A stretch of DNA of 64,000 bases from Gemmatimonadales bacterium (GTDB taxonomy: Bacteria; Gemmatimonadota; Gemmatimonadetes; Gemmatimonadales; GWC2-71-9), in the NCBI GenBank assembly GCA_036558125.1, contig DATBGE010000082.1:5781-69780 (forward strand), written 5' to 3'. The position numbers were made by a program, and so were the translations under genes. Within the stretch, counting starts at the first letter, position 1. Each line of letters opens with the position of its first letter. Below the pieces are notes generated by a model. It was not told the origin of the DNA. It made no database searches and was given only the letters and a program-made list of their open reading frames with translations. Below are positions 6,838 to 62,988 of this stretch, in pieces.

Positions 6838-7443
6838 ATGCGCAAGCTGGCCATACTCGCAGCTGGGTCGGTTTTCCTCGCCCTGGGCGGGGCGGCTCTG
6901 TTGCAACGGCCCGGGGGTGCCCAGCAGGGGAAACCTGCCCCCGACTCCGTGACCGCAACGGCAATCGCCGCCGAAGACTCCTCAGACCTTCGCGGTCCCC
7001 GCCAGCCCATCTTCTTTCGTCACGACATCCACGCCGGCCAGTACAAAATCCAGTGCCAGTACTGCCACTACAGCGTCGGGGTGTCGAACGAGCCAGGGAT
7101 CCCGAGCCTGCAGACCTGCATGGGCTGCCACATGGTCATCTCGGGGAGCGACAGCGGGGGCAAGACGGAGATCAAGAAGTTGCGCCAGTTCTGGGCCGAC
7201 AAGACCGATCCTGCGAAACCGCATCTGGAATGGTCCCGCATCCACGCGCTGGCGAGGCACGTGCACTTCCCGCACAGCCGTCACATCCAGGCCCTCGGTC
7301 CCAACGCCTGTAACACCTGCCATGGCGACGTCGCCCGCATGCCTCAGGTCTTCATGGTCAACAACGTGACGAACATGGGCTTCTGCATCACCTGCCATTT
7401 GGAACGGAAGGTCAATCGGGATTGTACGGCGTGTCATTACTAG
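6838..7443 (+). CDS. actA: Alternative Complex III subunit ActA (pentaheme cytochrome c)
   Basis: Five CxxCH motifs (CQYCH, CMGCH, CNTCH, CITCH, CTACH), an N-terminal signal/anchor, and first position in the actABCDEF order. Confidence 0.85.
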   Translation: MRKLAILAAGSVFLALGGAALLQRPGGAQQGKPAPDSVTATAIAAEDSSDLRGPRQPIFFRHDIHAGQYKIQCQYCHYSVGVSNEPGIPSLQTCMGCHMVISGSDSGGKTEIKKLRQFWADKTDPAKPHLEWSRIHALARHVHFPHSRHIQALGPNACNTCHGDVARMPQVFMVNNVTNMGFCITCHLERKVNRDCTACHY

Positions 7444-7529
7444 CTGTTAGCCGTTAGCTGTTAGCGGATTCTGCAGAGCTAACCGCTAAGAGCCAACCGC
7501 TAACCGCTAACAGCTAACAGCTAACAGCT
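7442..7529. repeat. Long hairpin built from tandem heptamers (GCTGTTA / TAACAGC) between actA and actB
   Basis: Left arm 7442-7467 (AGCTGTTAGCCGTTAGCTGTTAGCGG) pairs with right arm 7504-7529 (CCGCTAACAGCTAACAGCTAACAGCT) at 25 of 26 positions. The 36-nt loop contains more GCTAAC-type heptamers. Confidence 0.8.
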
Positions 7530-13019: not shown

Positions 13020-14380
13020 TGGCCAGCTCCGTCGTCCGGGAAACTCTCTCGATCCGCGCCCTGTCGGCGCGCTACAACCTGTTCGTCGGCTTGGGCGCGG
13101 TGCTGGCCGTGATCGGTCTCATCCTTCTCGCGCTCGCGCTCACTGGAGCACAGGCCGATCGCGCCTGGCATCTCTTTCACGTGAACTGGGTCTTCTTCAC
13201 CAGCCTCACCGGCGGCAGCATGGCCTTCGTGGCGGTGCAGAAGGTGACCAAGGCCAAGTGGTCCGGCCTGATGATCCGGTTCTCGGAAGCAGCCGCCTTC
13301 CTGTTCTTTCCGGTATCGCTGATTGGATTCCTGCTGATCTTCACGGTCGGCTACAGCCACATCTTCCCGGCGATGGAAGGGTTGGGGCACGCCAAAGAGA
13401 TCTGGCTGTCCCACAGCTTCATGTTCTGGCGGCTCTTTATCGGCCTCTGCCTGCTTTACTACCTGGGCTACCGGCTGATCAGAGCCGACATGATTCCGGA
13501 CATGTTTGAGACCAAGGCCCTGCTCACCGGCCGGCGCCGGACCATGTACGATCGCTGGACCGCCGGGTATGACGACTCGCCCGAGGCCAGAGCCCGAAAC
13601 GATCACACCATCTACACCCTCGCGCCCGCGTACGTGGTGGTCTACGCGCTCGTCTTCACGTGGGTGGCATTCGACATGGTGATGGGCCTGCAGCCCCACT
13701 GGTTCTCCAACCTGTTCGGCGGCTGGTTCTTCATGGGTGCGTTCCTGGGAGCCCATACCCTCCTCGCGCTCCTGATGCTCTACGGGCGGAAGGAGGTGGG
13801 TATCACCGCGTTCGTGTCCCCCAAGCAGCGGCACGACCTGGGCAAGCTCTGCTTCGGCTTCACCGTCTTCTGGGCCTACCTGATGTGGGCTCAGTTCCTG
13901 GTGATCTGGTATGGCAACCTTCCAGAGGAGACTGGATTCCTCTTTGCCCGACTCTGGGGTCCTTGGCGGCCGATCGGCAGCATCGTATTCCTCGGCATGT
14001 TCGTCATTCCCTTCTTCGGCCTGCTTGGAGTTCTGCCCAAGAAGGTGCCGTTTACCATGGCGCTCTTCACCGCGATCAGCCTGGTATCGCTCTGGCTGGA
14101 GCGGTATCTCGACGTCATGCCCTCGGTAACTCGCGAGCCGGGTCCCGTGTTCGGCCTTCCCGAGTTCGCCTCGACCGCGGCGTTCCTGGGACTCTTTCTG
14201 TTGTGCTACGGGATCTTCGCCCGCACCTTCCCGATGGTTTCTCCCCGGCTCGCCGAGATTACCCTCGATCGGGAGCGCGGGCATGTACTTCAGGAAGTCA
14301 CCGGCGAGTTCGAGCATGAAGAGGCGCCGGGCGATTACGTGGCCGCGGACGTGATCGAGCGGAGACACAAAGAGCGGTGA
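13019..14380 (+). CDS. actF: Alternative Complex III subunit ActF (second NrfD-like membrane subunit)
   Basis: ATG at 13019 overlaps the actE TAA (TAATG). Polytopic membrane protein paralogous to ActC. Confidence 0.85.
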   Translation: MASSVVRETLSIRALSARYNLFVGLGAVLAVIGLILLALALTGAQADRAWHLFHVNWVFFTSLTGGSMAFVAVQKVTKAKWSGLMIRFSEAAAFLFFPVSLIGFLLIFTVGYSHIFPAMEGLGHAKEIWLSHSFMFWRLFIGLCLLYYLGYRLIRADMIPDMFETKALLTGRRRTMYDRWTAGYDDSPEARARNDHTIYTLAPAYVVVYALVFTWVAFDMVMGLQPHWFSNLFGGWFFMGAFLGAHTLLALLMLYGRKEVGITAFVSPKQRHDLGKLCFGFTVFWAYLMWAQFLVIWYGNLPEETGFLFARLWGPWRPIGSIVFLGMFVIPFFGLLGVLPKKVPFTMALFTAISLVSLWLERYLDVMPSVTREPGPVFGLPEFASTAAFLGLFLLCYGIFARTFPMVSPRLAEITLDRERGHVLQEVTGEFEHEEAPGDYVAADVIERRHKER

Positions 14381-14425
14381 ACGGTGAACGGTGAACGGTG
14401 AACAGTGAACGGTAATCGGTGATGC
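14377..14425 (+). repeat. Tandem heptamer array (GTGAACG x7, last units degenerate) starting in the actF stop codon
   Basis: GTGAACG GTGAACG GTGAACG GTGAACA GTGAACG GTAATCG GTGATGC. A partial inverse copy (CCCCGTTCCCCGTTCCC) lies at 14480-14497, on the far side of the hairpin. Confidence 0.8.
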
Positions 14426-35489: not shown

Positions 35490-35915
35490 TTAGCGTTGTC
35501 TCAGCGCTGCGCGTGCTCCAAGCAAGGTGAGCAGGGCCGCAAGCAAGCCGGTAAAAACCGTGGCAAGATTGGCGAGGTAGGCTATCCAACTCGACAGCGT
35601 CTCATGCGGTGAGAGGGCTCGCACGCCTGTAATGGCCTGGATCAACACCGCTGCGGCAAAGGCGTATCCGGCCCCGACGAGTGACCAGCAGAGCGCCCGT
35701 TTCCGTGCGGGAGGCAGGACGAGAAGCGGCAGCGCGGGCCCGCTGGCCAAGAGCCAGACGCCGGCGAGTAGGAGAGCTCCGTGGGCGGCACGCCAAGTCG
35801 GTGGCTGTACCCCAGCGAGCTCTTCCGCCACCGCTGGCAGCCCGCAGAGAAGTCCGAGAAGGAGCAACACGGCACCGTTAAGAACTAGAAGGCTGGCCTG
35901 TTTGTCGGAGCTCAA
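35490..35915 (-). CDS. Hypothetical 4-TM membrane protein
   Basis: 141-aa hydrophobic ORF with coding-like composition. Confidence 0.5.
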   Translation of the reverse strand: MSSDKQASLLVLNGAVLLLLGLLCGLPAVAEELAGVQPPTWRAAHGALLLAGVWLLASGPALPLLVLPPARKRALCWSLVGAGYAFAAAVLIQAITGVRALSPHETLSSWIAYLANLATVFTGLLAALLTLLGARAALRQR

Positions 35916-37573: not shown

Positions 37574-38397
37574 CGACCAGCCGGGGTTGTAGTAGGGGTG
37601 TCGGTGAGCGCTTCCCGTTCCGCGATCAAGGTGAACAAAACAGGATCGCCGTGAGGCCTACGATACCGTCCGTCGCGGCCGCGCAAGAGTCCTAGGCAAA
37701 GCTCGGAGGAAATCGAGCCGTGCTCCTCAAGGGAACGGATACGGAGGCCGGCACGTTCAGCCGCAGCGACAACGGAGCGAACGGAATGCCGAAATTGCAC
37801 CTGGGGGCCGGTTCGGAGAGGCGTCGCGTAATCCCAGCCACGCTCAATCCATTGGCGATCGGTCAATTTGCCGGGTCTGATGAGGCGAGCAAGCCTTCGG
37901 AAAAGCGACGTCCTCGGAATACCGTCGATCAAGACCAGTTTGCCGCCCGGAGCGAGCGCGCCGGCTGCTGAGCGCATCCACGCCGAAAGGTCCGCGATCC
38001 AGCAGAGAATACCAATCGTGGCCCAGACGAGATCAAAAGAGCAAGCGAACGATTCGGGCAGTTCGACCACATCCGCGCAGACCCAATCGATCGAAACGCC
38101 GCAACGTGCAGCGAGCGCGCGAGCCTTCTCAAGAGCAACGTTCGAAAAATCGACTCCACTGACGCTCGCGCCCCGGCGGGCGAAGGTGATGGCGTCGAAA
38201 CCGAGATGACACTGAAGCTGGAGAACTCGTTTTCCTTCCAGGTCGGCGCCTACCGCGGCCGAAAGGGCTGCTTCTTCCTCAGGGATCAGGGAGTTCGCGC
38301 CGCCGCAGAGGGAAGCCGTGTCGTAGTAGGCGTCCTGGCCGTGAACCGCGGCAAGGAGATCCCAGCACTCACGATTCAGTTGATGATCCGCGAGCAA
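37567..38397 (-). CDS. Class I SAM-dependent methyltransferase
   Basis: Motif I-like VLQLQCHLGFDAITFARRGASVSGVDFS. Confidence 0.75.
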   Translation of the reverse strand: MLADHQLNRECWDLLAAVHGQDAYYDTASLCGGANSLIPEEEAALSAAVGADLEGKRVLQLQCHLGFDAITFARRGASVSGVDFSNVALEKARALAARCGVSIDWVCADVVELPESFACSFDLVWATIGILCWIADLSAWMRSAAGALAPGGKLVLIDGIPRTSLFRRLARLIRPGKLTDRQWIERGWDYATPLRTGPQVQFRHSVRSVVAAAERAGLRIRSLEEHGSISSELCLGLLRGRDGRYRRPHGDPVLFTLIAEREALTDTPTTTPAGRC

Positions 38398-38449
38398 GTG
38401 TCGAATGCATCCGGATGAGGTGCGTCCAACGAACTACCGACCCCGATGG

Positions 38450-39010
<561 letters not shown>

Positions 39011-39309
39011 GTAAGGGTAACTCGACGGTCTCCTTTGAGGCTGACTCCGGGCGCAACCAGCACGTTACGCACCTTCTCCAAACACAACGCCGTCCTCGGT
39101 TGCCATTCCAGTGACGGCGTTCCACTCAGTACTGGCTTCAACTGGTCGGATCCTCGAAAACATCTGGCAATGGATAGCGAATGGCAAGGACGGTGCTCAA
39201 GAGCGAGGGCTTGATGAATAGCGGAAGTGCTTGAGCGGGGGTGACGGTCGGGGCTTCGAAGCCCTCGAGTGCCAGAAGGAGAAGTGGCCACTGTGCTGTC
39301 TACCGGGCG

Positions 39310-39891
39310 TCAACGGAGGCCACAGCCGGTGGGCGGGTCCGGGTCAGGCACGTACGCTGGCATCCCGGGCGTGTATGGCTTCGACGGATCGACGCGGACG
39401 CCGTCCACGAACCAGCGCATGCCGTGCTCGTTCGTCACGTTGAGGCGCTTCCAGCCGTCCGCCAGGTGGACCCAGGTCTCGCGCTGCAGCACGCTGGTAT
39501 CGATTCGGTGCTGCCGGCCGTCGCGGAGTCGCTGGAGGCGCGAGAACTCCTGGCAGACGTCCGCCACCGACGTGTCACCGCGCTCCTCGAAGCCCCGGAT
39601 ATCATTGCGGACATGGATCACGGAGTCCACGGTAGCGGTCAATCGCCGGGTATAGGCTTCCATGGCGGCGTAGTCAAAGATCTTGGCGTTGGGGTTCGTC
39701 GAGGAGAAATCCGGCGCCTGGAGGGCCAGGATGCCATCGACATCCTTTCGTCGGATCGCCTCGGACAAGCGTTGGTACTGTGATTCAATCGCGGGCCGGG
39801 AGTCCTGGGCAAGAACCATTTTCGGCGGGGTCGCAGGCATGCCACCGAGGCTCATTGCCAACGAAAGGTGTCGGAACCGTAGCGCTGTCAT
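39310..39891 (-). CDS. NTF2-like (SnoaL/DUF4440-type) secreted protein
   Basis: Start at MTALRF (39891). The block IESQYQRLSEAIRRKDVDGILAL..PDF is typical of the NTF2-like fold. Confidence 0.55.
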   Translation of the reverse strand: MTALRFRHLSLAMSLGGMPATPPKMVLAQDSRPAIESQYQRLSEAIRRKDVDGILALQAPDFSSTNPNAKIFDYAAMEAYTRRLTATVDSVIHVRNDIRGFEERGDTSVADVCQEFSRLQRLRDGRQHRIDTSVLQRETWVHLADGWKRLNVTNEHGMRWFVDGVRVDPSKPYTPGMPAYVPDPDPPTGCGLR

Positions 39892-40087: not shown

Positions 40088-40170
40088 AGCCAACGCCCCG
40101 CGCTTCACCTGCAGGCGACGAGCGTGCCAGCTCGCCGTCGTCCAACCTACTTGCGGAGAGGCGAATGGAT
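40088..40170 (+). repeat. Conserved intergenic repeat, copy R1
   Basis: AGCCAACGCCCCGCGCTTCACCTGCAGGCGACGAG, followed by an imperfect dyad (GGCGACGAGC / GCTCGCCGTCGTCC) and GAATGGATTGG. Confidence 0.8.
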
Positions 40171-40227
40171 TGGCGGCTCCGTCGGAGTGGGACCAACGGC
40201 CATGGCGCCCCAGCACAAGAGGATTTC

Positions 40228-40755
40228 TCATTTTTGGCAGACGATGAGCATCTCCACGCTGACCTTGGTCCCCTTGGTCGCCGTTCCCTGGACCTTGAGG
40301 GAGTCGATGCCACCGGCCGTCGTGATGCGGGTCGCGGTTCCCGGCTCGCCATATTGGGGCTGATTGGCCCGAACCACGTAGAGCGGCGGAGTTCCCGTCT
40401 GCCCTATCCGGATCCCGACGGCGAGGTAGAAGCTGTGGCCGGTGGTGCCGCTCTTCAACGTGTCGGCATCGAAGTTCACTGAGGTCACGGCGATCGTAGC
40501 CGTGTCGTCGGGAAAAATGATGGCGAACGAATTGAGCCGGTGGGGATAGCCATAATCCGCGAGGCCACACTTGGTCGAGATGCCCGAAGCAGAGTAGGTC
40601 CCATTGTAGAGAGCATCGGCGTCCTTGGAGATTTTCACGACCACGCTGGTCGGCCGAAGCAGCGTGCTGTCGGACTTCTGCGCATGGGCTGGCTCGACCA
40701 GGCTGGGGAGTGCCGAGGCAATGAACAACGCGATGGCGGGAAACGAAGAGCGCAT
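40228..40755 (-). CDS. Secreted hypothetical protein
   Basis: Signal peptide MRSSFPAIALFIASALPSLVEPAHA and beta-rich composition. Confidence 0.55.
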   Translation of the reverse strand: MRSSFPAIALFIASALPSLVEPAHAQKSDSTLLRPTSVVVKISKDADALYNGTYSASGISTKCGLADYGYPHRLNSFAIIFPDDTATIAVTSVNFDADTLKSGTTGHSFYLAVGIRIGQTGTPPLYVVRANQPQYGEPGTATRITTAGGIDSLKVQGTATKGTKVSVEMLIVCQK

Positions 40756-40821
40756 GTGAACCGATCAGGGGGACCACACAAACCTAGGTTCCGCATCCCC
40801 GCGCGGCAAAGCGGCGTGCCT

Positions 40822-41592
40822 TCAGTGGGAGAGGATCAGCGGCAGCCTCGGGCGTAGATCCCAGATCTGCCCTCGGACCCCGTCATCGAACTCCACCTCC
40901 AGGAACGCCGTGGGCGAGTCGGCAAACCGCACCCGACGGAGGTCGAGGCGTGCGCTCGCCGGATACTGGCCCAGGGCCGTGTGGACGATTACTCGGGTCA
41001 TGCGGTGGAATCCGGCCGGGTGAGCGAACTGCTCCGGCTCGCGGCGCCGGAACCGGTCGAGCCAGGTGGTAACCGCCCGATCGTCGGGCATGATAAAGAC
41101 GTCGGGTGCAAGCGACTCTGCCGGCTGACGCAGCAGCACGTAGGCAGCGGGCGGTTGAGTGTCGGGTATGGTATCAAGGCGGAAGGGGATCCCAAGGTCG
41201 GCGAGACTGCCCGCCTGGAAGTGCAGGCCGATCCCGAAGGGGCTGGCGCCGGTTTCGCGCCAGGACGCCGCTCGGCGGAAGTCCGTGAGATCGCGTTGGT
41301 GGGCCGAGTCGACCGTCACGCTCGAATCGACCCAGAGCAGTTCGAGATAGGCATTCTCGAAGAAGGCCGCGATGGAAGTAGTACCCTCCCCGTCATGGCG
41401 TACGGTTTCGGTGTCGATGTGAATGCCGGCCTGGCGGAGAGCCTGGATCGCCGCCGCGGCGCCCGCCGGGACAACGAGGTAGGCGTGGTCGAGCTCGAGC
41501 ACGGCCTGTTGAGCCACGGCTGGTGTGGATGGCGCCGCAGCGACGGTGAGGAGGCCAGTCAGGGGGAGGAGGTGCCTGATATGCGATGCCAT
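40822..41592 (-). CDS. Secreted glyoxalase-like (VOC-fold) protein
   Basis: Start at MASHIRH (41592), a signal peptide, and the block LDHAYLVV...FFENAYLELLWV, which resembles a Glyoxalase_3-type domain. Confidence 0.55.
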   Translation of the reverse strand: MASHIRHLLPLTGLLTVAAAPSTPAVAQQAVLELDHAYLVVPAGAAAAIQALRQAGIHIDTETVRHDGEGTTSIAAFFENAYLELLWVDSSVTVDSAHQRDLTDFRRAASWRETGASPFGIGLHFQAGSLADLGIPFRLDTIPDTQPPAAYVLLRQPAESLAPDVFIMPDDRAVTTWLDRFRRREPEQFAHPAGFHRMTRVIVHTALGQYPASARLDLRRVRFADSPTAFLEVEFDDGVRGQIWDLRPRLPLILSH

Positions 41593-41666
41593 GAAGCGTC
41601 GAGCCCGAACGTTTCTTTCCCCCACCTCCAGGTGGAGCTATGGCCGCCTGGGAAGAAAGGCGCCAT

Positions 41667-42083
41667 CTACCCGTAGCGCCGCCTTGCCTCAGCGATCGAA
41701 CCGACGACGAGTTGCTCGAGCACCGACTTGTCGAGGTCGGCGAGTTGTTTGAAGTAGAGGCAGGACTTGCCCATCTTGTGCTTGCCAAGCTTGGCCAACA
41801 AGGCCTTCTGTCTGCCGGCTTCGGCGTCCAGATAGACGACCAGGTCGCGGCCACGGACAGCGAAGCCCGCCAGAGGAGCCTCCCCTGTATGTCCACTCTC
41901 GTAGGTGTACCGGTAGGAGCCATAACCGACGATGCTGGGTCCCCACATTCTTGGTGACTGCCGGGTGATCTGCTGAAACAGAACCATCAACTCCCGGCAG
42001 TCGGCGCGTTGCTGCGCGTTGGCTCTGGAGGCGATGTACTCCTCGACGCTGGCGCCGGTGAACTTGGTCTTGTTTTGGGCCAT
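41667..42083 (-). CDS. DUF1801 (YdhG-like) domain protein
   Basis: MAQNKTKFTGASVEEYI...GKSCLYFKQLADLD is typical of DUF1801. Confidence 0.8.
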   Translation of the reverse strand: MAQNKTKFTGASVEEYIASRANAQQRADCRELMVLFQQITRQSPRMWGPSIVGYGSYRYTYESGHTGEAPLAGFAVRGRDLVVYLDAEAGRQKALLAKLGKHKMGKSCLYFKQLADLDKSVLEQLVVGSIAEARRRYG

Positions 42084-42112
42084 ATCAGATAGTCCGTGAT
42101 TGCCGGGTCCCG

Positions 42113-42236
42113 GCGCCTAAGGCCCGCGCTCACCCCTGCGGGCGACGAGTGGAGGAGTCAACAACTGGATCGCTTCCTTGAACATATAGCGTCCGACTGC
42201 CCTCGTCGCCTCGCTCCTGGGCGTGAGGCTAAGGCA
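42113..42236 (+). repeat. Conserved intergenic repeat, copy R2 (with the clearest long imperfect dyad)
   Basis: GCGCCTAAGGCCCGCGCTCACCCCTGCGGGCGACGAG-TGGAG-GAGTCAACAACTGGAT. The distal arm CTCGTCGCC...GCGTGAGGCTAAGGC pairs back to the GGCGACGAG, CTCAC and GCCTAAG elements. Confidence 0.8.
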
Positions 42237-42357
42237 TTGACCTCGATTTGTTTACGGCTTTCTCGCCAGTTCTGTCGATTTTGAGCGGTCTCGTTCGACG
42301 TGTAAGTGAGGTCGCGAACGCCGCCGCAACCATCCCAACCGAGTTCAGGAGAGCACA

Positions 42358-42759
42358 ATGCGTTTCATCGTCATGGGCATAATGAAGAAGGAGCCGGAAC
42401 CAGGCGTTCCGCCGAAGCCCGAAGCGTTCGCCGCGATGCAGAAGTACAACGAAGAGGCCGTGAAGGCGGGTGTCCTCCTCGCGGCCGAGGGTCTCGCGCC
42501 CCTCTCGAAGGGTGCGCGCGTGAAGTTCAGCGACGGCCAGCCCACCGTCATCGACGGTCCATTCACCGAGGCGAAAGAGCTCGTTGCGGGTTTCTCGATC
42601 ATTCAGGTGAAGTCGCTGGACGAAGCGATCGAGTGGGTGAAGCGCGCTCCAATAGTCGCTCCAAACGGCGAGGTCGAGATCCGCAAGCTGATGGATGTCG
42701 AGGATTTCGGTGAGGGGTTCACCCCGAACCAGGAAATCGCCAAAGTGAAATACAAGTGA
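42358..42759 (+). CDS. YciI-family protein
   Basis: The block VIDGPFTEAKELVAGFSIIQVKSLDEAIEWVKRAP is typical of the YCII/DGPF fold. Confidence 0.85.
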   Translation: MRFIVMGIMKKEPEPGVPPKPEAFAAMQKYNEEAVKAGVLLAAEGLAPLSKGARVKFSDGQPTVIDGPFTEAKELVAGFSIIQVKSLDEAIEWVKRAPIVAPNGEVEIRKLMDVEDFGEGFTPNQEIAKVKYK

Positions 42760-43934
42760 GTGGGCCCGTGCACAGGCCACTGCTGCGCGTTGCTCTCCTC
42801 GCCCTTTCGATTGCGGCGCCGAACGCCTTCGCGCAGACCACCACCGCCGCATCGCCATCGCCGGACTACGGGAACCCTTCAGTCTGGCTCTGTCGCCCCG
42901 ACCGGCTCGCGGCCTGCGACGTGGATCTTTCCACCACGGTGATCGGCCGAGACGGGCGCTCGACCGTCGAGCGCGCACGGCTGGATCCAAAGGCGCCGGT
43001 GGATTGTTTCTACGTCTATCCCTCGGTGTCGACGGATACGACGGATTTCAGTGATCTCGTACCCGACGCCGCCGAGCGCACCGTGGTACGACTGCAGCTG
43101 GCGCGGTTCGGCATACGGTGTCGGCTGTTCGCGCCAATGTACCGGCAAGTCACGCTCGCCGCACTAGGTCGTGCCAACGCCGCCGGCATTGCGTCGCCCA
43201 ACTTCCTCGGTATCGGATACGAGGACGTCCGCGCCGCGTGGCACTACTACCTCGCGCACGACAATGGCAACCGTGGAGTCGTGCTGATCGGACATTCCCA
43301 GGGCACCAGCATTCTGACCGAGTTGATCCGCCGCGAGATCGAGGGCACGCCGGTGCAGTCACGCATCGTCTCCGCGTTGCTCATCGGCGCGCCGGGTGGC
43401 ATCCTCGTTCCCCGCGGGAAGGACGTGGGCGGAACGTTCGCGCACATGCCGCTCTGTCGCGCGACTACGCAGACCGGCTGCGTCGTAGCGTATTCATCAT
43501 TTCGCGCCAGTGCACTCCCCGCGGCGAGGACGCCTTTCGGGCCGTCCGACTCGACGGTAGTCGCGGCGTGCACCAATCCCGCAGCGCTTGGCGGCGGTGA
43601 GGCCGCCCTCAACGGTTATTTCGACGCGAGCGGAGGGACGGCCCTGGCGATGGGGCCCACCGAACCGTGGACCGCTGGCGGACAACCGATTGCAACGCCC
43701 ATGGTGCGTGTCGTAGATCTGTTGAAGGGGCGGTGCGCGACCAACGCCTTCGCCACCTATCTCGAGGTAACTGTACAGCGAGAGCCTGGCAGCCCGGCGA
43801 GCCGAGACATTCAAGGGGACTTGGCGGAGGGGCTTGGCCTGCATCTCGTCGATCTGGAAGTGGCCATGGGCAATCTGGTCGATCTCGTCGGCCAACAAAG
43901 CAGGAGCTATCTCGCCAGTACCCGCCGACCCTAA
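42756..43934 (+). CDS. DUF3089-like secreted alpha/beta hydrolase
   Basis: GTGA overlap with the yciI-like stop, a signal peptide, and a nucleophile elbow LIGHSQGT. Confidence 0.75.
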   Translation: MSGPVHRPLLRVALLALSIAAPNAFAQTTTAASPSPDYGNPSVWLCRPDRLAACDVDLSTTVIGRDGRSTVERARLDPKAPVDCFYVYPSVSTDTTDFSDLVPDAAERTVVRLQLARFGIRCRLFAPMYRQVTLAALGRANAAGIASPNFLGIGYEDVRAAWHYYLAHDNGNRGVVLIGHSQGTSILTELIRREIEGTPVQSRIVSALLIGAPGGILVPRGKDVGGTFAHMPLCRATTQTGCVVAYSSFRASALPAARTPFGPSDSTVVAACTNPAALGGGEAALNGYFDASGGTALAMGPTEPWTAGGQPIATPMVRVVDLLKGRCATNAFATYLEVTVQREPGSPASRDIQGDLAEGLGLHLVDLEVAMGNLVDLVGQQSRSYLASTRRP

Positions 43935-44005
43935 CAGATACAGCAATCGAGTGCTGTTCGGTGTTGGAGCCGAGCAGCCAGGACATCGAACGTGTGGAGA
44001 CTCAA

Positions 44006-44590
44006 ATGAGAAAGATCAGGATCGCGGAGCACATCTCGCTGGACGGCGTGATCCAGCCGGGCGGACCGAACGAAAACAGCGAATACTCGCATGGCGGGTG
44101 GACGGCGCCGTATCGAACTCCGGAAGGGGCCGCCGCCGCCGCTGAGGCATACGGCAGTGGCTTCGATCTGCTGCTTGGCCGCCGCACCTACGATCTCTGG
44201 TCCAGTTTCTGGCCGAAGATGAAGGGCGGTCCGTTCGCGGACAATCTGAACGCCGCGACCAAGTATGTCGCAACTCACAGGCCGGATGGCCTCGAATGGG
44301 GTCCGGTCGGCGACCTGGGCGCGGATGTCATGGAGGGTGTTCGCCGCCTCAAGTCACAGGACGGCCCTGACCTGGTGGTCTGTGGAAGTGCGTCGCTGAC
44401 GTCCGTGCTGCTCGAGAAGGGATTGGTCGACGAGGTTGTGCTGGCGGTGTATCCCCTCTTGCTGGGCCGAGGTAAACGCTGCTTTCCGGACGGGGCTGAC
44501 GCGCCGGAATTCGCTCTCGTCAGCACGAAGTCCACGCCGACAGGCGTGCTGCTCAACACTTATCGACACGTTGGATCGAAGCGAACCTAG
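44006..44590 (+). CDS. Dihydrofolate-reductase-family protein (RibD C-terminal domain), second paralog
   Basis: MRKIRIAEHISLDGV...LLLGRRTYD...VLAVYPLLLGRG. Start at the ATG at 44006, inside the longer tracked ORF. Confidence 0.8.
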   Translation: MRKIRIAEHISLDGVIQPGGPNENSEYSHGGWTAPYRTPEGAAAAAEAYGSGFDLLLGRRTYDLWSSFWPKMKGGPFADNLNAATKYVATHRPDGLEWGPVGDLGADVMEGVRRLKSQDGPDLVVCGSASLTSVLLEKGLVDEVVLAVYPLLLGRGKRCFPDGADAPEFALVSTKSTPTGVLLNTYRHVGSKRT

Positions 44591-44644
44591 TCTTCCAGGT
44601 CGTTTTGTGAAACCGATCGGGCCGCGCCCTGGTGATGGTGCGCT

Positions 44645-44700
44645 GCCCAACGCCCCGCGCTTCACCTGCGGGGGATGAGTGTTCGAGTCAACGGCTGGAT
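44645..44700 (+). repeat. Conserved intergenic repeat, copy R3
   Basis: GCCCAACGCCCCGCGCTTCACCTGCGGGGGATGAG-TGTTC-GAGTCAACGGCTGGAT. It begins with a perfect RYYYAAC heptamer (GCCCAAC). Confidence 0.8.
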
Positions 44701-44980
44701 GGCACTCGCGGCATCGTCGGGAACAGCTGGCACCTGGCTTCCTGCCCTATCGAGGGAATCGGGTAACCCGACGTCTTTATCGTCACGAATGGCGTCCCCT
44801 CGGCGTTACCTGCTTCCTGCGTCGTGAGAAAGTGGCCACACGACATATCCAACGCGCACATCACGAAATCGGCCAGGATCTGGTGGGCGGTGGGTATGAA
44901 TGTCAGCAGCGGCTGATGTACGCAGGAACTGTACGACAGTGGGACTCACGGGCTGAGCGTCAAGCTAGCTGCGTGCAGGC

Positions 44981-46147
44981 TCATAAGCCGGCGAAGAACG
45001 CTGCGATGTCGCGGGCGAGCAACTCGGGCTCTTCGACTGGGGCGAAGTGCCCGCCGCTCGGCATCGGGGTCCACCGGCGCACGTTGTACAGGCGTTCGAC
45101 CCACTCACGGGGAGGCTGTCCCTCATCGATAAAATTGCTGGCGAATACGGCAATGCCAGTCGGCACGTTGACGAAGTCCTGTGGTCCGAGCGTGACTCGG
45201 AACCGCCGGTTGTCGTTGTCGAAGTAATCCCGCATCGAGGATGTGATCGTCTGCGTCACCCAATAGAGCGTGACCGTGGTCAACAAGAAATCGCGGGCGA
45301 GGCGCTGATCGAGATCACCACGGGAATCGGCCCAGGAGCGCCATTTCTCGAGGATCCACGCGGCGAGCCCAGCCGGCGAGTCGTTCAGCCCGTATCCGAG
45401 CGTCTGGGGCTTCGTGGATTGGATGGCCTTGTAACCATATTCTTCTTGCCAGAATGCCTCATTGCGCTCGCGGTAGGTTTTCTCCGCGGCAGATAGTGGC
45501 CGGGCCCCGGTTCCAGTGTAAGGAGCGATCTCCAGATTGCTCAGGTGGACACCAATCATTGGCTGCGGATTGGTCAACGCCATGAAAGTGGCAACTCCGG
45601 CTCCGAAATCCCCGCCTTGAGCCCCATAGCGCTCGTAGCCCAACCCGCGCATGAGGCGGTGCCAGAGCCCCGCCACGTGCTGGTAGTTCACGCCCAGCCG
45701 GGCTGGCCGCTCGGAAAACCCGTAACCAGGCAGGGAAGGAATAACGACGTCAAAGGCGGGACCGTCGATGCCGTGGGCGCCTGGGTCGGTCAGGAATGGC
45801 ACGAGCGGCAGCAACTCGACGAATGTGCTGGGCCAGCCATGGGTCAGGATCAGCGGAATGCCGTGCCCCTGTCTGGCCCGCTCATGGACGAAGTGGATAC
45901 GGACGCCGTCGAGGTCGGCGCGGAACTGGCGGGCCGCGTTCAGCCGGTGCTCTTGTGCGCGCCAATCGAAGTCGCCGGCCCAATACGCAAGCAGCTGTTT
46001 GAGGTACTCGAGGTCGGTCCCCTGCTCCCAGGCGGCGCCCGGCGCCGGATCGGGCCAGCGCGTGTTGCGGATACGCGCTCGCAGGTCGGACAGTATCTCT
46101 TCCTCGATCCGGATCGAGAACGGCGTGATATGCAGGGGTGAGCTCAT
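44981..46147 (-). CDS. Epoxide hydrolase (alpha/beta hydrolase with EH N-terminal domain)
   Basis: The N-terminal block I..F.I.I.EE.L.DL..R....RWPD, the oxyanion motif HGWP, and the nucleophile region GGDFGAGV. Confidence 0.85.
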   Translation of the reverse strand: MSSPLHITPFSIRIEEEILSDLRARIRNTRWPDPAPGAAWEQGTDLEYLKQLLAYWAGDFDWRAQEHRLNAARQFRADLDGVRIHFVHERARQGHGIPLILTHGWPSTFVELLPLVPFLTDPGAHGIDGPAFDVVIPSLPGYGFSERPARLGVNYQHVAGLWHRLMRGLGYERYGAQGGDFGAGVATFMALTNPQPMIGVHLSNLEIAPYTGTGARPLSAAEKTYRERNEAFWQEEYGYKAIQSTKPQTLGYGLNDSPAGLAAWILEKWRSWADSRGDLDQRLARDFLLTTVTLYWVTQTITSSMRDYFDNDNRRFRVTLGPQDFVNVPTGIAVFASNFIDEGQPPREWVERLYNVRRWTPMPSGGHFAPVEEPELLARDIAAFFAGL

Positions 46148-46178
46148 CGTGGATCTTGCCCTAACATTCTTACCTGCC

Positions 46179-46276
46179 GCCGAATGCCGCGCGCTTCACC
46201 TGCGGGCGACGAGGGAACGAGTCAACAACGGATGGATTCCCTTAAGACTACAGCGCCCGACGGCGCGGCGTTGGGT
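46179..46276 (+). repeat. Conserved intergenic repeat, copy R4
   Basis: CGCCGAATGCCGCGCGCTTCACCTGCGGGCGACGAG-GGAAC-GAGTCAACAACGGATGG, ending near a GTTGGGT heptamer (46270-46276) that matches the GTTRRRY form. Confidence 0.8.
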
Positions 46277-46297: not shown

Positions 46298-46678
46298 CTA
46301 AGGCCCCGCCCGATGTCTCAACAGGAGTCCGGTGGTGAACGGGATCAGCCAAATGCTCCACACGGCGACGCTGACTCGGGGAAAGGTCCGCCGGGCGTGT
46401 TCATTGCCGCGAAGCATTACTGCGCTGGCCGAGAGTGCATGCGCCAGCATAAGGAAAAGGGCGACCACGCCAGTGGCCGTGTGAAGGGACCAGTGAAAGC
46501 CGCCGGCCATGCGACGCATCAGTTCAGTCCCCGCGCTGTCGGCGAGGAAGCCTCCCCAGAAGCACCCCAAATGCCAGGGCCTGAGGCGCTTCGTGAGGAA
46601 GCTGGTCCAGACGCCCACGGAGTAGAGGCCGAGGGCTGCGACCATGAGCAAGACGGCTGTCCGGATCATTGGCGGCAT
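46298..46678 (-). CDS. Small 4-TM membrane protein (HsmA/TIGR03987-like)
   Basis: 126-aa hydrophobic ORF. The family call is from memory only. Confidence 0.55.
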   Translation of the reverse strand: MPPMIRTAVLLMVAALGLYSVGVWTSFLTKRLRPWHLGCFWGGFLADSAGTELMRRMAGGFHWSLHTATGVVALFLMLAHALSASAVMLRGNEHARRTFPRVSVAVWSIWLIPFTTGLLLRHRAGP

Positions 46679-46754
46679 TGTGATGCGGACCCGCGTAGAG
46701 ACATCTGATGAAGAACCTGGGCGCTACAACGATGGGCGCATGAACCTGCGGCCG

Positions 46755-47210
46755 TCACAGCCGATTCTGAATCAGGTAGTCAATGTGATCGACGCTGGGG
46801 TACGGCACTCCCGCGCGTGCGCAGAGCGCCGACAGCTGGCCGCGGTGATGATATCCATGGGTGACCAGATGGTAGAGAATATCAGCCACGCTCGCGTGGT
46901 ACTCCTCCCCCGATGCCCGGCGGAAGTGAATGACGTCGGGCAATCGGGAGGCGATGAGCTCACGGTAGGTAACCGCGTTCTCGGCGAAACCGCGGAGCAG
47001 CTCCTCCTTGGCCAGCTCTGGGAGGGTCGTAGTCGTGACCTGCCGTCCCGCGATGCGAGCGAACCAGATACGTTCGCCCTGCAGAATGTGCGCCAACAGC
47101 GTCCGCGCCCGGGCGTCCAGCGTTGGCTGACCGTAGACGACTTCTACCCACTTCGCGTTGGCCCAGTTGGCTTGGGCGACGAGCTTGAGAAGATCCTGCG
47201 CTGAGGTCAT
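46755..47210 (-). CDS. DinB-family (four-helix bundle, metal-binding) protein
   Basis: DinB-type histidines (LAHIL, HLVTHGYHHRGQL). Confidence 0.8.
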   Translation of the reverse strand: MTSAQDLLKLVAQANWANAKWVEVVYGQPTLDARARTLLAHILQGERIWFARIAGRQVTTTTLPELAKEELLRGFAENAVTYRELIASRLPDVIHFRRASGEEYHASVADILYHLVTHGYHHRGQLSALCARAGVPYPSVDHIDYLIQNRL

Positions 47211-47378: not shown

Positions 47379-50300
47379 TTACGCGTTGTTCAAGAACAGC
47401 CGCCCCGACGCAAACGAATACCGCGCCACCGCCGGTGCCCAGCGCTGCATCTCGGCGCAGGTGAACGTATCCTCGAGCTCGATCCTGAGGACGCGAAGAT
47501 CCTCGAACAGGGCCCGCCACTGGGCCCGGTCGCCCTCCTCCGTGTCCTCTTCCAGCTCGTGGGAAATCGGGGGCCGGTCGGTGCGGAATACCTTGGTCGA
47601 CCGGCGGGCGCCCGGCGGGTGGGCCAGCTCGGGCTCCGTTGTCGGAAAGACTTGCTTCTCGATATTGTCGATGAATTTCCACCAATCGAGTTTCGCAGCG
47701 GCGGAAGGCTCCAACCCCTCCACCAGCTGACGGATGATCTCGGTCGTCTGCGCCGGATAGCCGGTCAGCATGGCCAGCAGCAGCAACACCAGCCGGTGAT
47801 CCTCCAGGTTGGGATTGATCAGCCGGTCGCGATCGGCCCCCCGCACGGTCGCGCGGAGCAGGCGATACACGTTCACATACCGCTTGGTCGCCCGCGGAGA
47901 AGGGAGCAGGACGTACAGCCGTTTCATGTGGGTGCGCTCCCAGTCCTCCAGGCGCAGGTGTCCTCGCGCTTTGGCGACGGCCTGCTTCGCCTCCTTTGCT
48001 TCAGTCGTCATCTGGCTCGGCTTCTTCTCTCCAGGGGCCTCCTGGGCCGGGAGCTTCGCGGGCTCCCCGGTAGCCGTCCCGGTCTCGGTGGCGCTCACCG
48101 TCCCCTTCTGTCCATCCTGGGCTGGGGGAGGTAATGGAAGCGTCTCCCCGTGGGGAGGCGGCTGAGCCCCGGCTTTCGAGAGATCGTCGATCAGGTTGTC
48201 ATACCCCTTCCGGTCCATCCGGCGTAGCGCAAAGGGGATCTGGAAGATCTTCTCCAGATAGCTGAGGGGCGTGGATTGCCAGTGGTTGCGCTCCTCCTCG
48301 GTGGTCTCTTCCTCCTTCATGCTGTTGAACGCGGCGAGTTGCTGCCGAAGCGAGTGCAGCAGCCACCGAGAATCCACACCTACGACGACCACGAAGAGGG
48401 GAAACGCCAGCAGCAGGTGCACGGCCTGGAGGACCTGAAAGACCTTTCTCTCCGGGCAGCGGTCCAGGTCGTCGATGTACAGCACGATGCGGTTGATCGG
48501 GGGGAAGTTCATCGCCCGCTCGCCCTTGGCTTCGTCCGGCTTGTGATTCTCGACCAGTCCCATGAGCCGGGTCAGCTCCTCGAAATCCTGCCGGGCCCGG
48601 GCGATCACCCCGAAGTACTTCCGGTACTCGTCGCCCTTGTTCCGGCTCTGGATGAAGTCGCTGAGTCGCCGGTCTGGCATCAGCTTGTCAAGCTTTTCGT
48701 TCAGGTCGGCCACCTCGTTCGTTACGGCTTCCACCTCCTTGCGTTTCGCCACCGCAAGGTCTTCCGCTTCCTTTCGCTCCTGCTCCGCCTCGGCCACGCG
48801 CTGCTGTCGGGCAGCGTCGATCTTGGTCTTCAGGCTGTCCCGGGCATCGGCGACGACCTTGGCCGCGGACCTGGCCTTGGCGAGCACCGGGGCGATCCTG
48901 GCAACGATCGCGACGAGCGCACTGGTTACCGCGGCGATGTACGGACCGACCACCAGGAGCTTCGTGAGGATCCAGCTGCCGGCAACCAACCCGATCACCA
49001 GCACCACGACCGAGATGACCCAGAACCGGGCGCTGCCTTTGGCGGTGAGCGAGCTGATGACGCCCTTGCCGAAGGAGGCGAGCTCCAGCGTCTCCTTGAT
49101 CTGATCGTCCAGGTTCCCCGCCGCCTCACTGAGAGGGTCCAGGCCGAGTTGCTTTCGCCCTTGGTCGAGCTGTTCCTTGATCCCGGGCTGGCTGCTGACG
49201 AACCTGACGATCTCACTCGCTACCGCCTTGGTGCCCAGGCTCTTTTCGATCTCCGCATCGGTGCGGTTCTGGGTTTCATCGACCACGCGCTGCCGCTCGG
49301 CCAGCTCGCCCTCGGCCGCATCGGCGGCCTGCTTGGCTTCGGCCAGCTTGTTCTCGGCGACGGTCTTTTGAGCCAGGAGCAGGGTGCGCTGCTCCTGAGT
49401 TTCAGAAATGCCGCGTTTCCGGACTTCCTCGTCGGTCAGGCTCTGGGCCAGGCCATCAAAGATTTGCGCTCCGAGAGTGGCCCAGAGACTCTTGTCGATG
49501 TAGTGCCAGGCATTGAACCAGAGCTGCACGATGTGAGGACAGAACGGCGAGCTGTCGTTGCCGCGGGCCTCGTCACGCAGGGCATTGATCCGTTTTTCCA
49601 TCTCCTGCATGAAGAAGCTCTTCCCGCTGCCCCAGTCGCCGAACAGCCCGATCGAGAGTGGCGGCTTGACTTCCCGCGCAGCGACCAGCGCGCTCAGCGC
49701 GTCGACCTCGTCGTCGATGCTGAGCAGGTCCTTCCCGCCGGCCACGTCATTGCTGCAGCCGGCGATCATGCCCTCGTCCACCTCGGGGATCGTCCGGTCG
49801 CCGAGGTCGATTTCCTCCTTCCGAATCCCCCGGTCGAGCAGCGCCTTGATGACATGGCAGTGCTCGATGGAGAGAGCGCCGTAGAGCAGGTGCCGGCTCT
49901 GGATCTGCACCGACTTCTTCTCATCGGCGATCGCTTGCGCGGCCTCGATCGCGATCTGGGCGTGACCGGACATGCCGGGCAACTCGGTGAGCTCGGTGGG
50001 CGTGTAGCTGCCCTGCCGGGGCAGCGCGGCCTCAACCGACTCCCCCAACACCGTCCGCAGTTCGTCCTCGTTATCGATCCCGGCCTCCTTGAACAATTTT
50101 TCGGCCGGGCCATCCTGTTTCAGAAACAGCCCCATGATGAGCTGTTCCATATGGACCCGGTCGCTGGGAGTGCTCTTCATCCCGTCGGCCACGCCAAGCG
50201 CGCCGCGTGAAGAGGGGCTCAGGCGGCGGAAGAAGGTGACCGGATCGAACGGTCGTTCGGATCCGCTGGTGCGGGGCGCGGCGGCCTTGGACTGCTGGAC

Positions 50301-50576
50301 CGCATTCGGAATGTTTTCGTTGGTCGGATTTCCGGCATTGCGGTCCGGTTGGTCGGCTGACCTGGCGAGGGCGTCCAACGTGGCCGCATCTACCCGGCCC
50401 GTGACCTCCAGTCCCCGCTGTTCCTGAAAGCGTCGTACCGATTGTTCGGTGGCGGCTCCGAACAAACCATCCACCGTGACCTTCATGCCGACCGTTTGGA
50501 GGAGCTCCTGAATCTTGCGGACTTCCGGTCCCTGATCGCCTCGGCCTGCGTCGCGTGCTGAACTCGGCTGCTGCAT
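47379..50576 (-). CDS. KAP-family P-loop NTPase with N-terminal peptidoglycan-binding-like and Clp_N-like domains
   Basis: Walker A LFGDWGSGKSF and Walker B VLYIDDLDRC are separated by an insert with two long hydrophobic helices (FWVISVVVLVIGLVAGSWILTKLLVVGPYIAAVTSALVAIVARIAPVL), which is the KAP hallmark. The N-terminus GPEVRKIQELLQTVGMKVTVDGLFGAATEQSVRRFQ resembles a PG_binding_1 repeat. Residues ~170-290 resemble Clp_N repeats. Confidence 0.85.
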   Translation of the reverse strand: MQQPSSARDAGRGDQGPEVRKIQELLQTVGMKVTVDGLFGAATEQSVRRFQEQRGLEVTGRVDAATLDALARSADQPDRNAGNPTNENIPNAVQQSKAAAPRTSGSERPFDPVTFFRRLSPSSRGALGVADGMKSTPSDRVHMEQLIMGLFLKQDGPAEKLFKEAGIDNEDELRTVLGESVEAALPRQGSYTPTELTELPGMSGHAQIAIEAAQAIADEKKSVQIQSRHLLYGALSIEHCHVIKALLDRGIRKEEIDLGDRTIPEVDEGMIAGCSNDVAGGKDLLSIDDEVDALSALVAAREVKPPLSIGLFGDWGSGKSFFMQEMEKRINALRDEARGNDSSPFCPHIVQLWFNAWHYIDKSLWATLGAQIFDGLAQSLTDEEVRKRGISETQEQRTLLLAQKTVAENKLAEAKQAADAAEGELAERQRVVDETQNRTDAEIEKSLGTKAVASEIVRFVSSQPGIKEQLDQGRKQLGLDPLSEAAGNLDDQIKETLELASFGKGVISSLTAKGSARFWVISVVVLVIGLVAGSWILTKLLVVGPYIAAVTSALVAIVARIAPVLAKARSAAKVVADARDSLKTKIDAARQQRVAEAEQERKEAEDLAVAKRKEVEAVTNEVADLNEKLDKLMPDRRLSDFIQSRNKGDEYRKYFGVIARARQDFEELTRLMGLVENHKPDEAKGERAMNFPPINRIVLYIDDLDRCPERKVFQVLQAVHLLLAFPLFVVVVGVDSRWLLHSLRQQLAAFNSMKEEETTEEERNHWQSTPLSYLEKIFQIPFALRRMDRKGYDNLIDDLSKAGAQPPPHGETLPLPPPAQDGQKGTVSATETGTATGEPAKLPAQEAPGEKKPSQMTTEAKEAKQAVAKARGHLRLEDWERTHMKRLYVLLPSPRATKRYVNVYRLLRATVRGADRDRLINPNLEDHRLVLLLLAMLTGYPAQTTEIIRQLVEGLEPSAAAKLDWWKFIDNIEKQVFPTTEPELAHPPGARRSTKVFRTDRPPISHELEEDTEEGDRAQWRALFEDLRVLRIELEDTFTCAEMQRWAPAVARYSFASGRLFLNNA

Positions 50577-56766: not shown

Positions 56767-56809
56767 CTGTTAGCCATTAGCGGGGAGCTAACAGCTAACA
56801 GCTAACAGC
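56759..56809. repeat. Hairpin built from GCTGTTA/TAACAGC-type heptamers (same unit as at 7442-7529)
   Basis: Left arm GCTATTAGCTGTTAGCCATTAGC, loop GGGGA, right arm GCTAACAGCTAACAGCTAACAGC (about 20 of 23 paired). It lies between convergent ORFs. Confidence 0.8.
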
Positions 56810-56823
56810 TCACAGCTCAGTCC

Positions 56824-61264: not shown

Positions 61265-61879
61265 ATGGCGTTTACCTTGCCTCCACTTCCCTACGACTAC
61301 GCCGCGCTGGAGCCGCACATCGACGAACAGACGATGCGGATTCACCACGACAAGCATCACGCGGCCTACGTCAACAACCTCAATACGGCGCTCGAGCCCC
61401 ACGCCAACCTGCAATCCAAGTCCATCGAGGATTTGATCGCGAATATCGACGCACTGCCGGAGGCGATCCGCGGCCCGGTGCGAAACAACGGCGGTGGGCA
61501 CTACAATCACACGTTCTTCTGGGAGATCATGGCCCCGGGCGGAGCCAAGGAACCGGCCGGCGCCCTGGCCGACGCCATCAATAAAGGCTTCGGAGGTCTC
61601 GCCAGCTTCAAGGAACAGTTCCAGAAGGCGGGAGTCGGCCGGTTCGGCAGCGGCTGGGCCTGGCTTACGGTAGACAAGTCAGGCACCGTGGCGATCGAGA
61701 GCACTCCCAACCAGGACAGTCCCCTGATGGCCGGCAAGAGCGTCGTCCTGGGCTGCGACGTGTGGGAACACGCCTACTACCTCAAGTACCAGAATCGCCG
61801 CCCCGACTATATCGCCGCGTGGTGGAACGTGGTGAACTGGACGGTGGTGGGGAAGCGGTTCGAGAGTTTGAAGAAGTAG
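61265..61879 (+). CDS. sodA: Superoxide dismutase (Mn/Fe family, Mn-type signatures)
   Basis: The blocks [32 protein letters not shown] and [18 protein letters not shown]. Confidence 0.9.
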
Positions 61880-61930
61880 ACGGGAGACGGAAGACGGGAG
61901 ACGGGAGAGAGGAAAAGTCTCCCGTCTCCC
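61879..61930. terminator. Heptamer array (GACGGGA x4) that forms a bidirectional terminator hairpin
   Basis: GACGGGA GACGGAA GACGGGA GACGGGA begins in the sodA TAG. GGGAGACGGGAG (61896-61907) pairs perfectly with CTCCCGTCTCCC (61919-61930). The convergent peroxiredoxin stop is at 61931. Confidence 0.65.
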
Positions 61931-62956: not shown

Positions 62957-62988
62957 GCTGACCGCTGACCGCTGACGGCTGACGGCTA
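62957..62988. repeat. Tandem heptamer array (GCTGACC/G x4) ending in the aldehyde dehydrogenase stop codon
   Basis: GCTGACC GCTGACC GCTGACG GCTGACG GCTA. The final CTA is the reverse-strand TAG stop. Confidence 0.75.

Follow-up and report, generated by a model that had tools for sequence, protein, structure and literature searches.

A probable decaying integron cassette array without integrase in a Gemmatimonadales bacterium

A gene island punctuated by repeats

We examined a stretch of 64,000 nucleotides from a Gemmatimonadales bacterium (GenBank assembly GCA_036558125.1, contig DATBGE010000082.1, positions 5,781 to 69,780 of the forward strand; hereafter the window), in which an island of small genes is punctuated by a conserved intergenic repeat. 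Direct reading of 38-47.5 kb places four copies of one module on the same strand, starting at 40088 (R1), 42115 (R2), 44645 (R3) and 46179 (R4). The genes around them had been named from the letters alone in an earlier, sequence-only reading, and Pfam matches confirm that list: two RibD_C proteins, a DUF4440/SnoaL protein, Glyoxalase_3, DUF1801, YCII, DUF3089, an EHN epoxide hydrolase, a small membrane protein and a DinB protein. The same reading likened the island to a non-canonical cassette array with attC-like sites and no integrase in view. That likeness is supported by arrays linked to intI and attI in related genomes, by covariation in the stem of the repeat, and by exchange of genes at its boxes. 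We consider it very probable that the island is a decaying CALIN (cluster of attC sites lacking integron-integrase), and that R1-R4 are attC sites of one homogeneous family of Gemmatimonadales chromosomal integrons.

A repeat search of the window recovered R1-R4 as two families (D1 and D2), with which alignment A1 agrees, and the four same-orientation intergenic copies first noticed in the sequence-only reading are thereby borne out. The 24-nt core CGCGCTTCACCTGCGGGCGACGAG is matched at no more than two mismatches by R1, R3 and R4, where 100 shuffles gave an expectation of 0.00, and R2 carries the same core with small indels. The local alignment score of R1 is 54, against a shuffle maximum of 24. 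On direct reading the module had been spelled accurately, including the loss of the GAGTCAAC...GGAT part in R1, and the GCCCAAC that opens R3 and the GTTGGGT that closes R4 were both seen in the sequence.

Other structural claims about the repeats fared less evenly. The imperfect dyad proposed to follow each copy is present in R2 (DNA fold z -2.3), weakly present in R1 (z -1.5), visible in the centroid fold only in R4 (z -0.5), and absent from R3 (z +1.1); in single-sequence RNA and DNA folds only R2 is clearly stabler than shuffled sequence, and such folds alone neither prove nor disprove an attC site. The proposed inner stem CCCGC-N9-GCGGG exists as sequence, but in intact members of the family those bases find their partners in the distal arm and not in one another. 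A degenerate fifth copy had been suspected at 39040-39240, and this we reject: the local alignment score there is 17 against a shuffle mean of 16.3 (p~0.38), and the covariance model described below is silent. With filters off and on both strands, that model found nothing in the window beyond R1-R4. No attC similarity was detected at 39011-39309 or at 38380-38460, and in the other spacers of the island similarity to attC remnants did not rise above shuffles. Rfam (Rfam 15), which holds no attC family, gave no match at the repeats at gathering or relaxed thresholds. Base composition is uniform over the window, and there is thus no compositional island.

Site by site, every copy carries a lesion, either in the crossover G (R2 and R4) or in the distal arm (R1 and R3), to which R4 adds a 6-nt deletion. 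R1 (40088-40175, + strand) is a truncated attC whose left box AGCCAAC (40088-40094) gives a canonical top-strand R', G/TTGGCT, where here and below the slash marks the crossover point. Its 5' arm is kept up to GGCGACGAG (40122), its loop (the variable terminal structure) and distal arm have been replaced, and it has a weak partner box of its own, ATTGGCG, at 40169-40175. By blastn R1 matches the family consensus over positions 5-35 only, and as a full-length site it scores 13.1 bits under the covariance model, which is noise level. R3 (44645-44703, + strand) is likewise truncated; its left box GCCCAAC gives a canonical R', G/TTGGGC, and its 5' arm survives together with the initial third of the loop. 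Neither a distal arm nor a right box was detectable in R3, which matches the consensus by blastn over positions 5-45, reaching ~58 against related loci. As a full-length site it scores 14.1 bits, again noise level, and it shows no stable hairpin.

The other two copies are fuller. R2 (42115-42235, + strand) is a variant, damaged attC with the left box GCCTAAG, so that the top-strand R' reads C/TTAGGC and the crossover G is mutated. Its 5' arm has indels and its loop is conserved. The old distal arm begins with AGCGTCCGACTG and then gives way to a new one, CTCGTCGCC...GTGAGGCTAAGGC, which re-pairs with the 5' arm, and the right box of R2, GCTAAGG, does not fit GTTRRRY. The covariance model matches R2 locally at 42136-42199 (43.7 bits, E 1.7e-10, model positions 22-85), and its hairpin, besides the DNA value given above, has z -3.1 as RNA. 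R4 (46179-46276, + strand) is a full-length, damaged attC with the left box GCCGAAT and top-strand R' A/TTCGGC, in which the crossover G is again mutated. The core of its 5' arm is perfect (24/24), its loop is conserved and its right box is GTTGGGT, while in the covariance-model alignment its distal arm has a 6-nt deletion that abolishes the bulge geometry. R4 scores 49.2 bits (E 3.9e-12, model positions 1-104), its attC-like fold appears in the centroid only, and an identical copy exists on a metagenome contig (L019; related loci carry L numbers throughout). None of the four copies combines two canonical boxes with a two-armed, bulged hairpin.

An attC family of the Gemmatimonadales

When the species representatives of GTDB were scanned with the exact core CGCTTCACCTGCRGGSGAYGAG, 18 core-bearing stretches were found, of which 16 came from three Gemmatimonadales metagenome-assembled genomes (MAGs) and one more from a Gemmatimonadaceae MAG. 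As many as 5 copies of the core lie within 8 kb there, all in one orientation and with 450-750-nt spacing, and co-oriented arrays are seen in L004, L006, L010 and L012-14. The units of L004 are near-identical and 103-106 nt long. They read GTCTAAC-GGCCC-GCGCTT-CACCTG-CGGGCG-(~45 nt)-CGCCCG-A-CAGGTG-C-AAGCGC-TG-GTTAGAC, with a perfect RYYYAAC and a perfect GTTRRRY at opposite ends and arms that pair save for two single-base bulges.

From an alignment of 42 full-length copies (A2) we built a family-specific covariance model, which returned 70 sites including those of the window, 68 of them in 15 loci, at 38-128 bits. In the alignment of these 70 sites the left box is RYYYAAC in 47 and ends in AAC in 61, the right box is GTTRRRY in 55 and starts with GTT in 63, and the R helix is 87% paired. 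Over the whole structure pairing extends to 92.9% of cells, with double-sided changes in 21 of 30 pairs; in the 18-bp stem 96.6% are paired and 12 pairs have changed on both sides, figures that are somewhat inflated because the alignment was fitted to the covariance model. The observed values were reached by none of 500 shuffles, and slid controls were at most 37% paired. No covariation was found among the 42 closest copies, which are too similar, and it emerged only once divergent members were added. Counting from the 3' end of the + strand, 69-70 of the 70 sites share two bulges, at positions 16 and 23, with six bp between them; the bulge closer to the R box is C in 68, and the distal one is A in 46, T in 13, C in 7 and G in 4. 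The DNA folds of intact sites have z values of -4 to -5.5.

In known attC sites the bottom strand carries the AAC triplet on its 5' arm and the extrahelical bases on the opposite arm, usually G16 and T23/24, with a 6-bp stem between the first and last extrahelical bases (PMC5027507). Because the AAC box lies at the 5' end of the + strand here and the bulges on its 3' arm, the + strand is the bottom strand. This assignment also agrees with two independent lines, namely the attI junction and the position of cassette open reading frames (ORFs) on the - strand, both described below. Given dense arrays linked to intI and attI, the attC architecture, and cassettes that end at the boxes, the repeat family is a bona fide, lineage-specific attC of Gemmatimonadales chromosomal integrons, and the window sites descend from it.

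Integrase and attI in related genomes

We searched for integrases by tblastn with an IntI1 sequence, which served as a probe only, and obtained matches in L010, L007 and L006. The L010 protein, which is complete and encoded at 5944-6924, was validated by NCBIfam as an integron integrase (TIGR02249, 449.7 bits, cutoff 265), and scores 354 bits, under the cutoff of 435, against the class-1-type model NF011946. The three MAGs share a common geometry: with the repeats written on the + strand, intI lies to their right on the - strand and is transcribed towards the array. The 203 nt 3' of the intI stop codon are conserved in the three MAGs, and the sequences diverge after ...GCATGCAAGTGAAGTAATAG/TTAGRC. 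This conserved segment is an attI with a canonical GTTRRRY crossover box. It occupies about 200 nt directly downstream of the intI stop, at 246-468 in L006, 6929-7128 (-) in L007 and 5741-5943 (-) in L010, and its conservation boundary in the Gemmatimonadales MAGs can be written AGTAATAG/TTAGRC. Remnants comprising only the last 26 nt of attI, without intI, are found at 4248-4273 (-) in L004 and 7030-7055 (-) in L018.

The extended R'' of the first attC, when reverse-complemented, is identical to the DNA that follows the G at attI (in L010, TTAGGCAGCACACC). The start of the first cassette thus pairs with its own R'' at 15/15 positions in L010, 12/12 in L007, and 15/15 in L004 with its 26-nt attI remnant, as is characteristic of a cassette that was circularised and then inserted at G/TT. 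Between attI (6929) and the first attC (6359) of L007, on the - strand, the first cassette holds by eye a candidate BrnT/BrnA toxin-antitoxin-like gene pair. In the 64-kb window tblastn with the IntI1 probe found no intI (best E 0.61), nor was any attI-like sequence found there, and the window thus lacks the intI and attI adjoining an array that mark a complete integron.

Exchange of cassettes

Cassette structure is also visible in the intervals between sites. The right box of a site matches the left box of the following site at 5.7 of 10 positions, against 4.1 for its own left box and 4.0 at random, and in 17 of 21 intervals the cassette ORF, by a crude GC3-based choice, lies on the intI strand. 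Identical cassettes occur in different arrays and MAGs, with homology that stops at the attC boxes or at the attI junction; for example, 4237-4911 of L001 equals 6259-6933 of L007, and 3672-4253 of L004 equals 6867-7450 of L014. Several kb of array are 97-99.9% identical between L001 and L013, L014 and L005, MAGs of different GTDB species, and these near-identical segments reflect either recent transfer or closely related bins at the locus.

The epoxide-hydrolase gene next to R4 gives the clearest boundary within the window. It has 80 related loci on soil metagenome contigs, at 84-91% amino-acid identity, and the gene arrangement of the window recurs in none of them; a few have a RibD_C homologue nearby, in other relative positions. 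Nucleotide homology to these loci begins at 46184 in 18 of them and within 46180-46190 in 29, and 46184 is the first T of the TT after the R4 crossover base. At the other end homology stops 1-15 nt past the stop codon. Related cassettes start G/TTCGGCGGCAGG or G/TTAGGCNGCAGG and have other attC types downstream. These boundaries show the epoxide-hydrolase gene by R4 to be a mobile cassette, with its 5' end at the crossover point. At least three different attC types follow the cassette in L020-L099 (soil metagenome contigs), one of ~70 nt, GCCGAAC-AACGTGTTGCAGCC...CACAACC-GTTAGCC, and another of ~130 nt, GACCTAAC-CAGGCGATGCAGC...GATCTTGTNTCTC-GTTAGA. The distribution suggests that the epoxide-hydrolase cassette circulates widely among soil integrons. 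The only exact-protein match is a 2-kb contig identical to the window, which adds no further context.

Two other comparisons point the same way. On a MAG contig (L008) the KAP NTPase gene is 90% identical to that of the window, yet a different membrane-protein cassette lies beside it, bounded by an intact attC and a half site. The KAP counterpart spans 3518-6800 of L008 at 90% nucleotide identity and is apparently split by frameshifts, and synteny is lost on both of its flanks. A homologue of the unknown 175-aa protein of the island, with 76% identity, occurs in L015 in other surroundings, close to a degenerate attC. Variation in gene content at repeat boundaries among relatives, which had been put forward as a check on the cassette idea, is thus seen in the epoxide-hydrolase loci, in L008 and in L015.

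Gene content and other features of the window

The island is not organised as one gene per interval. To the left of R1, on the - strand (38450-39891), lie the first RibD_C gene and the DUF4440/SnoaL-like gene (38450-39010 and 39310-39891; Pfam), which are possibly former cassettes, though without a detectable attC remnant; RibD_C homologues of 82-85% identity stand near epoxide-hydrolase cassettes in L045, L049, L057 and L087. Between R1 and R2 are three co-oriented genes on the - strand (40228-42083), for the unknown 175-aa protein, Glyoxalase_3 and DUF1801 (Pfam). The YCII, DUF3089 and second RibD_C genes between R2 and R3 (42358-44590; Pfam) form a block on the + strand, opposite to 17 of the 21 cassette ORFs of intact arrays. 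The epoxide-hydrolase cassette (44981-46184, - strand) starts TTCGGCGGCAGG, reading downwards from 46184, and comprises a 37-nt leader and the EHN/alpha-beta hydrolase gene at 44981-46147 (Pfam EHN 1e-35). From R4 to the KAP gene, the small membrane protein (46298-46678) and the DinB-family protein (46755-47210; Pfam DinB 9e-15) are co-oriented, cassette-type genes on the - strand (46298-47210). To the right of the island, at 47379-50576 (-), is the KAP NTPase, a protein of 1065 aa with an N-terminal peptidoglycan-binding domain (Pfam). A single promoter-like site was found, upstream of DinB (47310-47282, - strand), and such sites are no more numerous than in shuffles.

Other features lie elsewhere in the window. 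An ORF of 141 aa at 35490-35915 (-), with no Pfam match, has ~69% nucleotide identity to 5293-5724 (-) of L010, where it is the first cassette ORF after attI; no attC was detectable beside the window ORF. Intergenic tandem heptamers are also present. At 7441-7529 (GCTGTTA)x3.6 faces (AGCTAAC)x7.6 to form a palindrome of 27 nt with 93-96% complementarity, and AGCTAAC recurs 4.6 times between a tRNA gene and a rhodanese gene at 56786-56817. The heptamers CGGTGAA, AGACGGG and GCTGACC occur at the sites 14375-14422, 61878-61908 and 62957-62987. AGCTAAC is similar to the attC R box, and the palindrome at 7441-7529 is a weak, 16-bit match to the covariance model, possibly by coincidence.

Comparison with known systems

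CALINs have been defined and are common (Cury et al. 2016, PMC4889954); the definition asks for two attC sites or more, spaced by less than 4 kb on the same strand and with no intI nearby (PMC4889954). R2 and R4, the copies detected by the covariance model, lie 3.9-4.0 kb apart without intI, as judged by a family-specific model and not by IntegronFinder's thresholds. As in other CALINs, the cargo consists of small genes of unrelated function, and related genomes hold a complete integron elsewhere. The window differs in that its sites are visibly eroded, two of the four being half sites, and in having up to three genes per interval and one block in the opposite orientation.

The intact family resembles the Vibrio cholerae repeats (VCR) and other homogeneous attC families of sedentary chromosomal integrons. 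Its MAG sites are ~103 nt long, lineage-specific and 86% identical on average per column, with a large conserved loop and arrays of many cassettes, and the bulges follow the same plan, at 16 and 23 with six bp between them and on the arm that faces AAC (PMC5027507). However, the Gemmatimonadales bulges are C16 and a variable A23 rather than G16 and T23/24, and the R-box spacer is mostly paired, with 5 versus 2 unpaired bases rather than 5-6 per arm; the host phylum, Gemmatimonadota, is also different. In layout the closest parallel is found in Treponema, whose atypical integrons have intI transcribed towards attI (PMC3607928). Similarly, in L006, L007 and L010 intI is on the strand of the cassette ORFs and attI follows directly on its stop codon, whereas the Gemmatimonadales IntI differs in scoring near the class-1-type model NF011946, below its cutoff as noted above. 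We regard the C16/A23 bulges and the co-oriented intI as variant details of a known kind of system. Integrons have already been reported in Gemmatimonadota (PMC8618304); our limited literature search found no description of Gemmatimonadales integron sites.

State of the window sites and alternative explanations

In the intact family, the + (bottom) strand would fold through the R box (GCCTAAC/GTTAGRC), a short spacer and an 18-bp stem, with a loop of ~45 nt closing the hairpin and bulges 16 and 23 standing on the arm opposite the AAC triplet. IntI would then cut at AA/C (G/TT on the top strand). Cassettes on the - strand would read TTRRRY-ORF-attC-G and would be inserted at attI, just downstream of the co-oriented intI. 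Measured against this scheme, R1 and R3 are unable to fold into the hairpin. Partner sites of the class 1 system do not recombine when they differ at the first nucleotide of GTT (PMC2811028), and because of this rule R2 and R4 should not be expected to recombine with canonical partners. From such lesions we infer that the window sites are now poorly active or inactive, in which case the genes between them would effectively be fixed genes of the chromosome. The non-canonical traits pointed out in the sequence-only reading, namely imperfect AAC and GTT, several genes between repeats and mixed orientation, are explained by this decay of the window copies.

Several points weigh against reading the island as a decayed array. 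Membership in the attC family rests on a covariance model built from the family itself, and the alignment behind the covariation count was likewise fitted to that model. Taken as whole sites, R1 and R3 are at noise level, and they are recognised by their 5' halves only. A by-eye check of neighbouring window copies found no extended complementarity between their boxes, any pairing being with a copy's own distal sequence. The several genes between sites, together with the opposite-orientation block, do not make a simple array of one gene per cassette; the bulged bases are C and A and not the usual G and T; and the loss of function in the window sites is itself read from their letters.

On one hand, the array might still be alive. 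An IntI encoded elsewhere in the genome would then be able to cut out and rearrange the genes lying between R1 and R4, imperfect though the sites are. In favour of this, R4 and R2 score within the 33-60 bits of divergent sites inside real arrays, R1 and R3 retain canonical G/TT boxes, related MAGs hold a complete integron plus separate attC clusters on other contigs, and integrases tolerate diverse attC sequences (PMC4889954, PMC5027507). However, in no copy do a canonical crossover box, both arms of an intact hairpin and the bulges occur together: R2 has C and R4 has A in place of the crossover G, which blocks class 1 recombination with canonical partners (PMC2811028), R1 and R3 are without the R''-L'' arm, and the fold stabilities of the window copies are near those of shuffled sequence. 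We therefore think a still-active CALIN unlikely.

On the other hand, the repeats might have nothing to do with cassettes, and the sequence-only reading had itself listed a repetitive extragenic palindromic (REP) or miniature inverted-repeat transposable element (MITE)-like sequence, a structured RNA, or the sites of another recombinase, none of which we found supported. A generic, self-spreading REP/MITE-like element that merely resembles attC would, like these sites, be short, palindromic, intergenic and present in many copies per genome. Yet the copies, far from being scattered, group into arrays on one strand with single ORFs between them, the arrays begin at intI and attI, and what moves between genomes is a gene plus one site, cut at G/TT; moreover, target-site duplications are absent, as are terminal inverted repeats other than the attC boxes. 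Such an element is barely credible as an explanation. The conserved hairpin in intergenic DNA, with its conserved half preceding the epoxide-hydrolase and DUF1801 start codons (- strand) by 30-35 nt, could also suggest a structured RNA, a regulatory element or a terminator transcribed with the neighbouring genes. We hold this to be very unlikely, given the lack of an Rfam match at either threshold, the lack of any promoter-like or terminator-like site coinciding with the repeats, and their inconsistent position relative to genes, R3 following a + strand gene and R1 lying 200 nt from the next start; DNA recombination, by comparison, does explain the behaviour of the family. The observations that had been named in advance as speaking against a cassette array were not made: the core is clustered, unlike a REP, a recombinase is linked to it in relatives, and gene content varies at the repeat boundaries. 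A decaying CALIN thus remains our preferred explanation for the island.

Half sites

How the sites decay may be informative in itself. In damaged sites of the window and of its relatives, the surviving part is nearly always the same half of ~35 nt, made up of the crossover box with the arm next to it (top-strand L'-R'). Half sites are found at 6981-7015 (-) in L008, 1222-1248 in L009, 7915-7949 (-) in L011 and 4474-4496 in L017, and as R1 and R3 in the window. Their breakpoints cluster just after GGGCGACGAG, at model position ~35-38 in R1, L009, L011 and L017 and slightly further in L008 and R3. A single candidate for a 3'-only remnant was seen, at 1400 in L014. In contrast, the two fuller window copies, R2 and R4, lost the crossover G instead. 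Partial blast matches in the loci had at first been taken for half sites as well; under the covariance model most of them were full-length, divergent sites, and about 4-6 true half sites remain. The half site of L008 stands at the start of its array beside the KAP gene, where attI would be expected.

Survival of the same half could possibly be due to hairpin-stimulated deletion, to selection on the leader of the downstream gene, or to a function of the half site. A stronger version holds that decay is not random, and that a process or selection "locks" cassettes by disabling their attC, or else that half sites have a function of their own, so that the Gemmatimonadales system would be a distinct integron variant. 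Half sites may, for example, act as double-stranded, attI-like docking sites at the starts of arrays, as the position beside the KAP gene in L008 could suggest. We regard this version as quite improbable. If it were true, the Gemmatimonadales integron, given also its C16/A23 bulges and its intI co-oriented with the cassettes, would be a structurally distinct variant with its own route to cassette fixation.

Significance

Our results explain a repeat-punctuated island as, very probably, a fossil integron cassette array, which is a fairly ordinary feature of soil bacterial genomes. They leave the understanding of integrons as such unchanged, and their value lies mainly in annotation and in the study of cassette domestication. 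For the Gemmatimonadales, an abundant soil lineage, a well-resolved attC family, an attI and an integron layout are now available, and the family-specific covariance model can be used to assign cassettes in soil metagenomes to this lineage. The epoxide hydrolase, RibD_C and the unknown 175-aa protein appear to circulate as cassettes among soil bacteria, and may become fixed as their attC sites erode.

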